A stretch of DNA of 64,000 nucleotides from a virus. The translations under genes were made by a program, and so were the position numbers. Shown here piece by piece: positions 39,383-64,000 of the stretch (position 1 is its first letter; every line of letters begins with the position of its first letter). Under the pieces are notes generated by a model that made no database searches, was not told where the DNA came from, and saw only the letters and a program-made list of their open reading frames with translations. The DNA is taken from positions 1-64,000 of the IMG/VR virus record IMGVR_UViG_3300032607_001425. One strand, given 5' to 3'.

Positions 39383-40018
39383 CTAAATAAATTCCATTGT
39401 TGATTTATTTTTATTTCTACCTGATAGCCAGGCTTGTAAAGTTGCTGGTAGTACTCCTATTGCTTTTGCTGCTGCTCGAACTGTCTCATAAACCTGTTCT
39501 GTCTCTGTATCCCGAACTGCTCTTGCACTTGGATTATTTGCTCCTTTCCAACTCTCTGCACCAGTCTTTGCCATCCTTATCTCTCGAAACTTCTGCCTTG
39601 TTATTTCTGAAGGTTTATTTCCTTTAAGTGAGTTTGATAGGTTCTTTTTATGCTCTTCTGTTCTTGGAGGCTTCTTCTTACCTCTATTACCATCTCCTAT
39701 TCTATTTGCTGTTTCTTGTGAGCAGTGTCCAGTTCTATCGTTTGTTTGAGTCAGTCGAAGATTTAATCCACCCTCTCCCAGTACGTTAAAGAAATCTTGC
39801 CAGTGTCTCTCACGGACGTTCAATTGATCTATCTCACACTCTTCCACTACTTCAAAGATATGCTCAGAGAAACCATATTTTACTAGTGAAACATATAGCT
39901 TTTTTTGATTTTTGCAACTCTGTAGGTGGCTGTATTCTCGTCGTCTCTTTTTTAGGTTGACCGATTGTCCAATATAAACTTTTCCACTTGGACTTGTAAT
40001 TTTGTAAATTCCTACCAT
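39383..40018 (-). CDS. GIY-YIG homing endonuclease with NUMOD3/HTH tail
   Basis: GIYKITSPSGKVYIGQS. Confidence 0.9.
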   Translation of the reverse strand: MVGIYKITSPSGKVYIGQSVNLKKRRREYSHLQSCKNQKKLYVSLVKYGFSEHIFEVVEECEIDQLNVRERHWQDFFNVLGEGGLNLRLTQTNDRTGHCSQETANRIGDGNRGKKKPPRTEEHKKNLSNSLKGNKPSEITRQKFREIRMAKTGAESWKGANNPSARAVRDTETEQVYETVRAAAKAIGVLPATLQAWLSGRNKNKSTMEFI

Positions 40019-51007: not shown

Positions 51008-51730
51008 CTACTTTTTTATGTTTAAAGTTTGTAAATCTATTAAATTTGTATCAATTATATCGGATACCGTATAACTGCCGTACCCTGCTTCTCTAAAGGT
51101 CTTACCAATGTATATTCTATCATGTTCTTTCAGTTTATGATCAGTTGCAGCTACAGCTACTGCTGTTACTACTTTGTCTGGATTAGTGCATCTTCTACTT
51201 AGTGTACTCATGTCAATTCCTATTTCCCTATGTGCAATTTGTAATGAAGAGTAATTACCCAAAGGAGTAGTGTATATGTACTTGGTTTTTGCTCCTACTT
51301 TAAAAATATCTTGTTTAAATTCTACTAAAGAGCATGATCCTCTAAGTCCTGTTGATAGATGTAAATAACTGACCATTCCTACTAGTGGCTCCCTCTTAGC
51401 TCTTTTTTTTAGTTTAACCCGTAACTCTACCATCTCATTTTGAGATAATCCTGCATAAGTATTACCTCCTTCTCCACCTGTTGCTATATTATAAAATAAC
51501 TTACTTTGTACAGCATTTAGCAACTTTATCCATCTTACTTCTCCACTTCGGCAATCTTCTTTGTTGGAATACCTTTCTAGTATAATTCTAGTAAAGTTAT
51601 CTTTTCCGTACTTCTGTACTGCTCTTTTTAATAATTTACCTGACCCTAGGTAATTATCAGACTCCGGTCCTTCGTACTTACCTACATAACTCTTCCCATT
51701 AAACAAACATACTGTGAGATATACAAACAT
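51008..51730 (-). CDS. GIY-YIG homing endonuclease (Seg-like)
   Basis: FVYLTVCLFNGKSYVGK, YLGSG, KYGKDNF, YNIxxGG. Confidence 0.85.
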   Translation of the reverse strand: MFVYLTVCLFNGKSYVGKYEGPESDNYLGSGKLLKRAVQKYGKDNFTRIILERYSNKEDCRSGEVRWIKLLNAVQSKLFYNIATGGEGGNTYAGLSQNEMVELRVKLKKRAKREPLVGMVSYLHLSTGLRGSCSLVEFKQDIFKVGAKTKYIYTTPLGNYSSLQIAHREIGIDMSTLSRRCTNPDKVVTAVAVAATDHKLKEHDRIYIGKTFREAGYGSYTVSDIIDTNLIDLQTLNIKK

Positions 51731-58537: not shown

Positions 58538-58684
58538 TTAAATTAGTATTTTCTTTTTAAAAAGGTAAAGTAGGCTGTTGGTCTTATCTATAACAACGGA
58601 TACTAATTCCCAACCATGTTGACCAGCATTATTAAGTTGTTCTCTTGTTACATCCCATTGCTTTAGGTATTCCCATTTTTCCAT
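58538..58684 (-). CDS. DUF4177-like small protein
   Basis: not in ORF track; MEKWEY...LNNAGQHGWELVSV...YLFKK. Confidence 0.6.
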   Translation of the reverse strand: MEKWEYLKQWDVTREQLNNAGQHGWELVSVVIDKTNSLLYLFKKKILI

Positions 58685-58714
58685 AACTTTTATTTGTTTT
58701 AAATTTCTAATAAT

Positions 58715-58752
58715 TAAATATACGAAAAAAAGCTTGCCGAAGCAAGCCTTTT
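58715..58752 (-). promoter_or_regulatory. middle-type promoter with terminator embedded in its spacer
   Basis: AAAAGGCTTG-CTTCGG-CAAGCTTTTTTTCG-TATATTTA; similar at ~8031, 34416, 42866, 47327, 54558, 63025. Confidence 0.65.
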
Positions 58753-58757
58753 GCCAA

Positions 58758-59456
58758 TTATTTTTTAGAATATTTCCAGATAAATCCTCCTGCAGTTTTT
58801 ACCTTACCTTTTATACAGGTCGAGATGTTCCCTTTATCTATTCCTAGATCTTCACTGGCTTCTCTTCCTGAAGACCATTCTCTGATGAATCTTCCATCTC
58901 TATTGTATTGATTGATAGCTTTTTTGTTTTTCTCTGCTATTAGCTTATAATCTGTATTTTCTACCTTTATTATAAAGTTGGTATTTTTAATCCTTGCTGC
59001 TTCATCTCTACTAGCTGCTGATTTATTTCTGTTTCCTTTTCCTTCCTCGGTCATATTATAGACCCTTAGAGTCTCTGCTATTTGGGACTTTACCTCAACC
59101 CCCTTGGAAGTACTGTAGAGAAGCTTCTTAGCTGCTTTTATTTTATCCACTGTATTTTGGGAATGTACAGTCTTAGCTTCCTGCGTACTCTGTAACTTAC
59201 AGTTTAATCCATTTTCAGATAGAACATCGTAATATTCTTGCCAGTGTCTCTCACGAATGTTTAGTTCCTCTACCTTACACTGTTCTACTATTTCAAAGAT
59301 ATGCTCAGGGAAACCGTATTTTACTAGTGAGGCATAAAGTCTTATCTGATTCTTGCATCCTTTTCTAGCGTAAATTTTCTGCCTTGTTTCCAAGTCAGTA
59401 CTCTGCCCAATATATACTCTTCCCGTTGGACTTATAATTTTATAAATTCCTATCAT
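58758..59456 (-). CDS. GIY-YIG homing endonuclease with NUMOD1 tail
   Basis: GIYKIISPTGRVYIGQS; KTAGGFIWKY; paralog of 39383..40018. Confidence 0.9.
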   Translation of the reverse strand: MIGIYKIISPTGRVYIGQSTDLETRQKIYARKGCKNQIRLYASLVKYGFPEHIFEIVEQCKVEELNIRERHWQEYYDVLSENGLNCKLQSTQEAKTVHSQNTVDKIKAAKKLLYSTSKGVEVKSQIAETLRVYNMTEEGKGNRNKSAASRDEAARIKNTNFIIKVENTDYKLIAEKNKKAINQYNRDGRFIREWSSGREASEDLGIDKGNISTCIKGKVKTAGGFIWKYSKK

Positions 59457-59557
59457 ATTAAATAAAAAAAGGAGAAATTAAAAATATAGTACCTGACCGT
59501 ACTAAATCTTTAAAATCTCCATATGCTCTTGTAGGTCGGTCAGTACCCTTTATTTAA
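59457..59557 (-). ncRNA. kissing-loop leader RNA, variant D
   Basis: GGGU-ACUGACCG-ACCU; GGAGA...UAGUAC-GGUCAG-GUACUA...UCUCC-U7. Confidence 0.6.
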
Positions 59558-59595
59558 TATAAATAGCAACTTTTTATAAAAACCGCTAGTTTTTA

Positions 59596-60741
59596 CTAGT
59601 GGCTGTCGCCATAATCGTGCTTCTCCGATGCAATTAAATATTCAGGGTTTATTACTTTTGCTACCTTTTTACGATCTCCAGATATGTGCTTTATGACTAT
59701 TCCCTCGTGAGGAGTTTTTGTCCTTTCAATGAAGTTGTTGAATACAAAACTGTCTTGGATTTCTTGGTTCCATTTACCTGCATATAGAACTTCTACATGA
59801 GGTAATCCTAATAGCTCATCTATTTCATATTGAGCAGAATCTGTTGGAAAGTATTCATTATCCATTTTTAAATCAAATCCTGTAAATCTAATATCCTCTA
59901 ACCCATAGGTGTAGTTCTTTTGAATTCCTGCTCCATAAATTTCTCCATAAAGAATTAGTCCATCACCAACATAGTCACTTCCATAGATGTAGCATAGGTT
60001 CCAAAGCCTTGCTTTGATTTGATACTTTCCAGCAATTGTTCTCCAAACATCAGTTGAGTAGAATCCTTGAGAATCACTCCCTTTTTCTACATTATGAGAT
60101 CCGTAGACATACTCGTAATCAATCCACTCATCAGTAATTCTTAGGAATTTTTTTACTTTATCCCAAAATGATAATTTAGATTTTTTAACTATTCCGTATC
60201 GTGCGTTAGTCCCATGAATCTTTCTAGTGATTTGAACTTCATCTTCTTGCGTAAACATTCCGTCAACGTTTTTAAGGTTTGGGAATCTGTAGTAGATGTG
60301 GAAGTTTTGATTATCTTGGTACTTAATCTTTCTACCTGAGGCAAGTTGAATTTGTTTAACTGGTGGTTCGTATTTGGTAATGTTTAGGTGAGACATACAA
60401 TCTCTCCCCTCAATTACTAAATCATAGTCACCCATTGATACTTTACCTTTAAGATAGCTTATTGGAATGATTAAGCATTCAGAATAAACTCCTCTTAATT
60501 TTACAGTCCTTACTCTATTGCCTTTTCTTAGGTAAGAAGTAACTCCCATCTGTTCAGATAATTTTTCTGGTATAACTGCATCGGTAGTTGCAATAACTGC
60601 TAACCCATCTACTTGAAATTCTCCTTTTTTAGTAATAGCATTCCATCCACCTGCAATCACAAGTTCGATGTTATCTGCTCCTTCAATGGCTCTTACTTCG
60701 TTTATTTTTGCTATAAAACAGCAGCTGTTATTATTTTCCAT
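59596..60741 (-). CDS. RNA ligase (Rnl2/DRB0094 family)
   Basis: IEGADNI, LRGVYSE, KIHGTN, YGEIYG, FD, EGIV, KVINxxYL. Confidence 0.9.
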   Translation of the reverse strand: MENNNSCCFIAKINEVRAIEGADNIELVIAGGWNAITKKGEFQVDGLAVIATTDAVIPEKLSEQMGVTSYLRKGNRVRTVKLRGVYSECLIIPISYLKGKVSMGDYDLVIEGRDCMSHLNITKYEPPVKQIQLASGRKIKYQDNQNFHIYYRFPNLKNVDGMFTQEDEVQITRKIHGTNARYGIVKKSKLSFWDKVKKFLRITDEWIDYEYVYGSHNVEKGSDSQGFYSTDVWRTIAGKYQIKARLWNLCYIYGSDYVGDGLILYGEIYGAGIQKNYTYGLEDIRFTGFDLKMDNEYFPTDSAQYEIDELLGLPHVEVLYAGKWNQEIQDSFVFNNFIERTKTPHEGIVIKHISGDRKKVAKVINPEYLIASEKHDYGDSH

Positions 60742-60985
60742 TTTTATGTTCTTGTATTAAATTTTTTATTCCTTCTTTTTTCTCATCATTGAAAACATCT
60801 TCGAGTTTAATTTCTTTTTCTGCAAAATACATAAACTCTAAACATTTGTAAACACTCATTCCACTTTTACAACAATCTTCAATATAGTCTTTATACTTTT
60901 CAAAATCCTCATCAGTGTACTTGTAATTATCTTCTGTACGTCTGTCTTTTAGTCTTTGTAAATAATTTTCAAATGTTTCTTTCAT
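60731..60985 (-). CDS. hypothetical protein
   Basis: 84 aa ORF in operon. Confidence 0.65.
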   Translation of the reverse strand: MKETFENYLQRLKDRRTEDNYKYTDEDFEKYKDYIEDCCKSGMSVYKCLEFMYFAEKEIKLEDVFNDEKKEGIKNLIQEHKNGK

Positions 60986-61583: not shown

Positions 61584-62225
61584 TTATTTTACATATTTCC
61601 AAATAAATCCTCCTGCCGTCTTATTACGACCAGTCAGACAATTAGATATACTATTCCTAGATATTCCTAATGATCTCTCAATATCTCCCAGTGAAGGCCA
61701 AACTTGTACAACCACGTTGTCAAGCGTTAGTTGTTTAACTGAAACCATTCGCTTTATTGATCGCTTTTTAATGCTCTCTGGGTTTTGCATGTGATCTGTG
61801 GAAGGTTTAAATCCAATTGCTTTTCTTGTGGCTACAATTTTTGCAGCATGCTCTTTTGTTTTGGGGACATTTTTAAATTGAATAGATACGGCTAAGGCGT
61901 GCCTCTCTTTTACCTCCTGGTACATCCTTGCTGTTACTTTATGCTTAGGTTTGCTTATATCTCCCATTGTTACAAAAAACCACAGTGCCTGTGATAATTT
62001 TAGTTCGGTTGGGAAAATCCTACATAAAAGTAAATGTGCTACAAAATGTTCTCGAGCTGTAAGTAGTACAACATTTGGATGAGTTTTCCACTAACGTTCC
62101 AAACCTTCTCCTCCCATACATTTTGGAATAATGTGATGAGCTTCAAAATAAAACTCTCTACTCTTAACTCTGTTTTCACTTTGAGCTCTCTCAATTAGTT
62201 GATTGTAAATTCTTTGGTAATTCAT
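61584..62225 (-). pseudogene. HNH-NUMOD1 homing endonuclease interrupted by an in-frame TAG
   Basis: MNYQRIY...EAHHIIPKCMGGEGLER*WKTHPNVVLLTAREHFVAH...KTAGGFIWKY; TAG at 62091-62093. Confidence 0.8.
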
Positions 62226-63073: not shown

Positions 63074-64000
63074 TTAAATAAATTTTGATATATGAAACTC
63101 AATTAATTGTTGAGCTTTAGAAACATCCTCAACCCTAAGTTGTAAATTATTATCAGCGACTTTAGATAAAGTATCTAAATCTACCAATGTTACTGTGGAG
63201 AGTTGTGTTACATCGTGATCTACGTTAGCAGGTACTGATAGATCGAGTATTAATTTTGGGTTGTTATCGATATTGTTTTTGTTTAGTATAGGTGTTTCAG
63301 CATTTGTAGCTACTATTACTATGTCAGATACAAATATGTTTGCTTTTAGAGTATTGTAATGTGCTTTACCAACATGAAGTTCTTTTGAAAGTAAATCACT
63401 TACCTCCTCTGTCCTATTCATTAATGTAATTTTAGTACAGTGGAGATAGTCGATTAAATTTTTACAAGTGCTTCTTCCCATCTTGCCCATACCTACTATT
63501 AGTATATTTTTAGTACTTGCATCTGGAATATTCTTTTTTATGTATTCAATGGCTACTGATGATACTGAGACTATTCCTTTACTTAGGTTAGTATTATTTT
63601 TAACTTGTCTTGAGATGTGGATGACTTTGTTAGTTATTTTTTCTAACTTTCCTCCTAATTTTTGTGCTGTTTTAGATTTATTAATAGCACTTTTTAGTTG
63701 ACCTATTATTTCATAGTCACCAAGTATTTGTGAATCTAATCCACATGCTACTTGTGAAAGATGTCTCAAAGCATCTTCCCTACTTTTTATATAACATTGA
63801 TCGATAAAGTCATCCTTTGTTCCTTCTGTCTCAGAACATAGTAGTTCAATTAAACTATCAATACTAGGTCCATACCCATATATCTCAGTCCTATTACAAG
63901 TTGATAGAATAAAGAAGTTTGATAAGTTATTTGTAAGAAGTTTTTTGTACTTACTATCTGAGATAGAATATTTACCTCTTGTTAGTACATTTGATTTTTT
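63074..64000 (-). CDS. hemA: glutamyl-tRNA reductase (5' end beyond window; C-terminal dimerisation domain absent)
   Basis: frame open to 64000; LSTCNRTE, VACGLDSQILGD, GMGKMG, NRT, DLSVPAN. Confidence 0.9.
   Translation of the reverse strand, partial: KKSNVLTRGKYSISDSKYKKLLTNNLSNFFILSTCNRTEIYGYGPSIDSLIELLCSETEGTKDDFIDQCYIKSREDALRHLSQVACGLDSQILGDYEIIGQLKSAINKSKTAQKLGGKLEKITNKVIHISRQVKNNTNLSKGIVSVSSVAIEYIKKNIPDASTKNILIVGMGKMGRSTCKNLIDYLHCTKITLMNRTEEVSDLLSKELHVGKAHYNTLKANIFVSDIVIVATNAETPILNKNNIDNNPKLILDLSVPANVDHDVTQLSTVTLVDLDTLSKVADNNLQLRVEDVSKAQQLIEFHISKFI

Follow-up and report, generated by a model that had tools for sequence, protein, structure and literature searches.

A leader made of two hairpins precedes a GIY-YIG homing endonuclease gene in an uncultured myovirus, and comparison across copies confirms that the predicted pairing between the loops of these hairpins (H1 and H2) is real and far beyond chance in the leader family, here called family B, to which it belongs. 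The same leader is predicted to fold a long outer stem that runs from its own promoter motif to the start codon of the endonuclease and is kept in most copies, and its second hairpin with the U7 tract that follows looks like an intrinsic-terminator unit. An earlier note on this DNA had described a promoter, H1, an H2 apex complementary to the H1 loop, U7 and the ATG, and all of these were found on the minus strand (Table 1); the promoter to start codon pairing and the terminator-like nature of H2 and U7 had been missed. The features that mark a kissing-loop leader of an endonuclease cassette are all present, namely an own promoter motif, an H1 loop paired with the loop of a long hairpin, a U-tract, an endonuclease gene downstream and covarying loops.

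The DNA analysed (the window, 64,000 bases) is the stretch from base 1 to base 64000 of the 102,119-bp IMG/VR virus record IMGVR_UViG_3300032607_001425. The record is that of a myovirus, with tail sheath and tail tube genes present, and its minus strand carries nearly all of its genes. Across the whole record a Shine-Dalgarno motif precedes only a handful of some 129 ORFs and start regions are mostly A-rich, not U-rich, which fits a host not using Shine-Dalgarno pairing; presumably this host is one of the Bacteroidota.

Table 1. Features of the leader and of its surroundings (positions in the window)
Feature	Position	Strand	Basis or remark
RNA-ligase gene	59596-60741 (stop 59598-59596)	minus	Upstream neighbour of the leader
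Weak hairpin CCACUAG/CUAGCGG and U5	59576-59602	minus	Last ligase codons and 5' end of the inserted cassette; read from sequence
Leader	59565-59457	minus	Gap between the RNA-ligase gene and the GIY-YIG endonuclease gene
Promoter motif GCTATTTATATTAAATA, with core TATTTATA at 59565-59558	59551-59567	minus	Recurrence of the motif before other genes
Outer stem, 5' arm	59549-59566	minus	Overlaps the promoter motif and the bases just after; from fold and from cognate pairing kept in distant copies
Hairpin H1 (GGGU 59548-59545, loop ACUGACCG 59544-59537, ACCU 59536-59533)	59533-59548	minus	Sequence and fold
H1 loop core CUGACCG	59543-59537	minus	Pairs with the H2 apex
A-rich single-stranded spacer (ACAAGAGCAUAU here, AUAAAAACAUUAC in most copies)	59521-59532	minus	Low column entropy in the alignment
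Hairpin H2, 50 nt (base GGAGA/UCUCC, 2x2 U/U internal loop, A-U-rich middle, apical stem UAGUAC/GUACUA)	59520-59471	minus	Fold
H2 loop GGUCAG; apex CGGUCAG, complementary to the H1 loop	59498-59493; 59499-59493	minus	
U7 tract	59470-59464	minus	Directly 3' of the H2 base; AUUUAAU follows
Outer stem, 3' arm UUUAUUUAAUAUGAUAG	59450-59466	minus	Includes the start codon (59456-59454); fold and comparison
GIY-YIG / NUMOD1 / I-HmuI-like homing endonuclease gene, 232 aa	58758-59456	minus	Pfam matches and paralogy to the gene at 40018
Strong terminator AAGGCUUGC-UUCG-GCAAGCUUU and U-run	58750-58725	minus	An early-type promoter then follows

The leader as part of a mobile cassette

In the relatives L220 and L234 the site is empty, the ligase stop being followed directly by the strong terminator and the early-type promoter. 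In the window the insert extends from about 59595, just past the ligase stop, to about 58768, and the endonuclease stop codon and the old terminator come next. From the empty sites and the limits of the insert it follows that the leader is part of a mobile unit which has moved the ligase terminator some 830 bp away, and the strong terminator of Table 1 is, as judged from the empty-site relatives, the one that the ligase gene owned before insertion. Contigs assembled from four DNA runs contained no endonuclease-free variant; they only break off here, and depth rises sharply over the repeated segment 59451-59466.

The genome as a whole (102 kb) holds at least 13 endonuclease-type genes, comprising four with a family A leader, four with a family B leader, four in which the promoter motif stands at the ATG itself, and a GIY-YIG gene (51008-51730). 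The HNH-type gene behind one of the family A leaders (61584-62225 of the window, minus strand) has one in-frame stop codon. Elsewhere in the genome, at 77801-78607 (L205:13801-14607), an endonuclease gene (phrog_655) with a TATTTATT motif right before its ATG is lodged between the genes for the small and large subunits of ribonucleotide reductase. In T4, mobE is found in a comparable position, between nrdA and nrdB.

Copies of the leader and how they were collected

Beside the copy in the window, the same genome contains three more family B leaders, all outside the window and placed before the ATGs at 85661, 66088 and 88617. A separate covariance model, advised in the earlier note and built here, recovers exactly these four genomic copies at 106-137 bits, with scores of at most 26 bits on the reverse strand. 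The search pattern used to look further afield consisted of two invariant H2 segments; it matched the family in 53 viral loci, giving 41 distinct copies once chance matches were removed, and a metagenome collection gave 13 further copies. A stricter recount, in which 60 bases of upstream flank were required, left 52 distinct copies in total across viral and metagenome contigs. Since GGAGAUUUUA and UAAUUUCUCC are part of the search pattern they are invariant by ascertainment and have no evidential weight, and the helix base GGAGA/UCUCC, also fixed in family B, belonged to the pattern as well. A second pattern, made of promoter and spacer, mostly matched an unrelated gene start and added one family B copy, L191, in which a U-to-C change falls in the internal loop. 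A nucleotide search of the phage collection with positions 58700-60800 gave no match.

Two of the copies seem to be decaying. One (L020:5249-5376) has a run of 16 T in place of the start-codon region, and the other (L019:3637-3762) has TAA as its third codon and only 6 matches among the 7 loop positions.

Pairing between the two loops

The stretch of 161 nt that includes the leader folds at -45 kcal/mol (z = -6.35, with none of 200 shuffles as stable), and both H1 and H2 appear in the minimum free energy structure. The complementarity of the two loops is conserved in homologs, in line with the earlier note. Across the 41 aligned copies the loop-loop helix is 97.2% paired, double changes occur in five of its seven pairs, every one of the four Watson-Crick pairs is represented in one column, and 14 different loop codes are seen. 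Within the one genome the four copies read CUGACCG/CGGUCAG, CUGGUCC/GGACCAG, AUGCAAC/GUUGCAU and CUGCAAC/GUUGCAG. By automatic parsing, 6-7 loop pairs are obtained in 48 of the 52 distinct copies. When the partners are slid against one another by 1-3 columns, pairing falls to only 42-49% of cells.

Both hairpin stems behave in the same way as the loops, in that covariation is found in 4/4 of the H1 stem pairs, in all four apical H2 pairs and in the middle H2 stem too (41 copies). The covariation score of the whole structure is 0.324 as against 0.129 in shuffles, and none of 500 shuffles reached the observed value. Paired cells contain 90 G-U and 11 A-C combinations, and therefore it is the sense RNA that folds. 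We considered whether a longer duplex might replace the kissing interaction and rejected this, because pairing of GGGUACUGACCG with CGGUCAG-G-UACU works in the window copy but extension past the seven loop bases is not kept in other classes, and the stems of both hairpins covary; the loops thus truly kiss, and do not form part of a long stem.

No diversifying selection on the loop code was detected, the loops varying about as fast as the stems and no faster. Nor are the loop codes orthogonal, since 6 of 7 loop bases are the same in two of the copies of this genome. A mini-ORF of 6 codons (59522-59502) was rejected, as ACG stands in place of its ATG in most copies. The one clear exception to loop pairing is a metagenome contig of 1160 bp (L250), whose loops are mismatched (CUGCGAC against GUACCAG) and in which the 5' half is that of one variant and the 3' half that of another; it may be a natural recombinant or an assembly chimera made across the conserved spacer.

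The promoter motif and the outer stem

The promoter motif announced by the earlier note is present, and its designation as late is drawn solely from the same motif also preceding the tail tube gene. In this genome 10-19 nt separate the motif from the ATG both at the tail tube gene and at leaderless-type endonuclease genes, of which four are preceded by it. In seven other contigs (L067, L070, L079, L081, L089, L112 and L113, upstream of position 1501) a TATTTATA-type motif stands only 3-6 nt ahead of the start codon of GIY-YIG homologs, whose mRNAs are probably leaderless or nearly so. With the motif this close to the ATG in related contigs, transcription probably starts within a few bases past it.

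The last part of the promoter motif, together with the bases that follow (AUAUUAAAUAAA, 59560-59549), is predicted to pair with UUUAUUUAAUAU (59466-59455) through 12 consecutive pairs, and two 5-bp segments, one of which joins 59566-59562 to 59454-59450, extend this outer stem past the AUG to 22 pairs in total, so that a stable structure lies over the endonuclease start codon. No Shine-Dalgarno motif was found before this ATG. In the alignment the outer stem is 96.2% paired, U-A being replaced by C-G or A-U in some copies, and U-G wobbles also occur. It is kept with other letters as AUAUCAAA/UUUGAUAU in L013 and L309, as UCCAUAU/AUAUGGA in one L012 copy and with a G-U pair in L023. Duplexes of cognate arms average -8.4 kcal/mol and those of mismatched arms -6.0 ± 0.64, and none of 1846 derangements reaches the cognate value. 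Most copies have the stem, but it is weak or absent in L012a, L037, L055 and L270, and a consistent promoter to start codon stem was looked for in family A without success. Its loss in some copies and its inconsistency in family A mean that it cannot be the common function of all kissing leaders.

Because the 5' arm overlaps the TATTTATA motif and the next 9 bases, RNA started just past the motif, as we assume from the ATGs that lie 3-13 nt past it in other genes, would be without most of this arm. For the region from -12 to +6 the predicted unpaired probability has a median of 0.22 in read-through RNA and of 0.48 in promoter-started RNA, given the assumed start site.

The terminator-like unit

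By itself H2 folds at -21.2 kcal/mol (family median -18), is closed by GGAGA/UCUCC and has U7 directly after it, and a run of U4-U7 occupies this place in all copies. In family A the corresponding hairpin (AAAGCUUAUGGC...GCCUAAGCUUU) is followed by U7-U8, and a stem with a U-run also ends every other kissing-type leader family seen before GIY-YIG homologs. As the starts of most other genes are A-rich, the U-run hardly looks like a common start signal. The terminators of this phage are short and G-C rich, whereas H2 is a long, interrupted hairpin rich in A-U, and a scan of 58600-60900 with a simple terminator consensus called no site, H2 with its U7 included.

A hairpin before another endonuclease gene of this genome (99774-99813; L206:15774-15813) shows in its barest form how a promoter can be set inside a terminator-like lock. 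Its perfect 10-bp helix, UGCCUAUUUA / UAAAUAGGCA, contains the promoter motif on the 5' side and is followed by U6 and the ATG.

Two unrelated families with one plan

Family A leaders stand before the ATGs at 40018, 52492, 62225 and 82793, and the family B leader of the window before that at 59456. The middle sequences of the two families are unrelated, as the earlier note had said, and only the promoter motif and the U-tract are common; what is shared is a plan, in which the promoter is followed by a short hairpin, then by a long one whose loop is complementary to that of the first, and lastly by the U-tract and the ATG. Further leaders of this plan, again unrelated in sequence, are found before GIY-YIG homologs in L097, L118 and perhaps L074, and many GIY-YIG homologs have no leader at all. 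The proposal that topology and not sequence is selected therefore stands for the comparison of unrelated families, but within family B it does not extend to the single-stranded parts, since strong sequence conservation is seen both in the spacer and in the U-tract with the start region.

Leaders do prove exchangeable between nucleases. Family B precedes four gene types (GIY-YIG with NUMOD1, GIY-YIG-like with NUMOD3, N-terminal HNH with NUMOD3, and zinc-ribbon/C-terminal HNH-like), at least three or four architectures in all; the HNH matches of the last type are below Pfam's cut-off. The paralogy claimed for the GIY-YIG gene holds as well, its domain being 55% identical over 107 aa to that of the gene behind the family A leader at 40018, and so related domains sit behind leaders of both families.

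A similar arrangement on the minus strand at 2000-2170 of the window has a late-type promoter and then a hairpin UAG-AGUGACAU-CUA whose loop is complementary to AUGUCACU about 90 nt downstream. An early-type promoter lies between these kissing halves and a strong terminator after them, and the gene behind has no evident endonuclease link.

Proposed function and its alternatives

It is with middling confidence that we propose the leader to be a portable expression governor, in which a T4-like translational lock on read-through transcripts would be combined with a leaky terminator braced by kissing loops. It probably keeps nuclease output low and restricted to the gene's own transcripts. The leader would be the cis-regulatory part of a self-contained mobile endonuclease cassette, inserted just past the RNA-ligase stop and carrying its own phage promoter. 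In a first layer, transcripts that read through from the upstream gene would include the 5' arm and have the start codon locked, and those from the promoter of the cassette, without most of this arm, would be translatable. In a second layer H2 and U7 would act as a leaky intrinsic terminator that ends upstream transcription in place of the displaced ligase terminator and admits only a fraction of polymerases to the nuclease gene. The kissing pair may brace the long A-U-rich H2 or speed its folding and in this way set the dose, which is the weakest step of the proposal. Counting against the proposal are the terminator scan that passes over H2 and U7, the copies in which the outer stem is weak or absent, and the many GIY-YIG homologs that have no leader.

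A more elaborate reading, which we find rather doubtful, takes the outer stem and the kissing pair as alternative states of one portable switch by which the leader reads out the origin of its own transcript, with unrelated families having converged on the same device in phages of non-Shine-Dalgarno hosts. In read-through RNA the promoter-derived arm would be closed on the start codon, and H1 would be tethered too near the junction to reach the tip of the 22-bp H2, and in promoter-started RNA H1 would be free to kiss H2 and so alter termination at H2 and U7.

It seems unlikely that the leader is instead an mRNA stabiliser and ribosome landing pad, the kissing fold shielding the 5' end from 5'-end-dependent nucleases and the U-rich tract giving a single-stranded loading site in a non-Shine-Dalgarno host. 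H1 would lie only a few bases from the 5' end if transcription starts about 6 nt past TATTTATA, the phage genes are without Shine-Dalgarno motifs, and 40 of 52 copies keep a constant 13-14 nt between UCUCC and AUG; against this the start regions of most other genes are A-rich and not U-rich, the stem with an immediate U-run is a terminator signature that recurs in unrelated leader families, and a selfish nuclease is expected to be kept low (PMC2988022). Cleavage of H2 as a putative processing site by an enzyme of the RNase III type, which would part the upstream mRNA from the nuclease mRNA and alter the translation or decay of the latter, would suit the interrupted helix of some 22 bp with its internal loops, but leaves the conserved U-tract and the loop-loop pairing unexplained and is in our view quite improbable.

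Control by an antisense RNA or in trans has less in its favour and we give it very little credence. The reverse complement of the start region does resemble the promoter motif (CTATCATATTAAATA against CTATTTATATTAAATA) and could serve as the promoter of a leader antisense RNA, yet the TATTTATA core on the plus strand is broken by a one-base deletion, and the excess of G-U over A-C cells and the low reverse-strand scores of the covariance model point to a folded sense strand. A terminated leader might likewise act in trans through its loop code, as copies of one genome do have different codes, but these are not orthogonal and loops vary no faster than stems. Scarcely credible is a DNA-level inverted repeat or chance complementarity with no RNA role, which the A-T-rich sequence and the nearly palindromic promoter motif might suggest, given the compensatory changes in three separate helices and in the loop pairing, the failure of every shuffle, the far lower pairing of all slid controls and the tolerance of G-U wobbles on one strand only.

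Relation to known systems

Homing endonucleases need late and sparing expression that leaves their neighbours undisturbed, and to our knowledge the means by which this is achieved have been described for no more than a few genes of T-even phages. Among these I-TevI, I-TevII, I-TevIII, segB and mobE of Aeh1 have hairpins that control translation and in which a late or middle promoter is embedded (PMC2988022). As in these, family B places RNA structure over the translation start of an endonuclease with the 5' arm at the gene's own promoter, so that read-through transcripts alone should form it. In contrast to the T-even hairpins the closing stem of family B is long-range, with arms about 85 nt apart around a two-hairpin kissing domain, and it hides the AUG and an A/U-rich stretch and no Shine-Dalgarno sequence; it is known here from sequence comparison. 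Nor is the phage T4-like, having a family A polymerase and a host without Shine-Dalgarno use.

The second element also has a T4 counterpart, since mobE and segF have intrinsic terminators at their 5' ends, where about 30% of mobE transcripts end (PMC2988022). There, as here, a hairpin and U-tract at the start of a free-standing endonuclease unit could cut transcription into it, although the mobE and segF terminators are simple hairpins inside the coding region, whereas the hairpin of family B lies before the AUG, is about 50 nt long and has its loop paired with an upstream hairpin.

In cobalamin riboswitches the regulatory kissing loop L5-L13 pairs the loop of an upstream element with the loop of an expression-platform hairpin, giving control in cis. 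The loop-loop pairing in cis of family B is alike, with the difference that its loop letters are free to vary as long as they match. No ligand-binding aptamer is apparent, H1 being a bare hairpin of 4-5 bp that varies in stem and loop and matches no aptamer family. Kissing antisense RNAs of plasmid copy control (RNA I and RNA II of ColE1, CopA and CopT of R1) are two molecules made from opposite strands. They share with family B fully complementary hairpin loops of 6-7 nt in which changes of loop letters give new specificities, but in family B both loops are on one sense RNA.

At gathering thresholds Rfam reports only a tRNA in the window and in loci L002-L004, and no family, int-alpA included, reaches its threshold for the leader; in a permissive scan of 59400-59650 even the best match had an E-value of no less than 0.34, and all scored far under the thresholds. 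No published account of a kissing-loop leader in front of endonuclease genes turned up in the literature searched. Overall, control of homing endonucleases by RNA structure is of a known kind, and the design that joins a kissing loop to a terminator is undescribed in Rfam and in the literature found, the promoter to start codon lock being an addition in family B.

What emerges is a compact mobile RNA module in uncultured freshwater myoviruses, with strong comparative support, and since several families share its architecture without being related in sequence, the regulatory device seems to have evolved by convergence or in a modular way. If it is true that loop pairing tunes the terminator, this would be a simple, ligand-free and reprogrammable cis control element, and the leader would serve as a marker for endonuclease cassettes in metagenomes.
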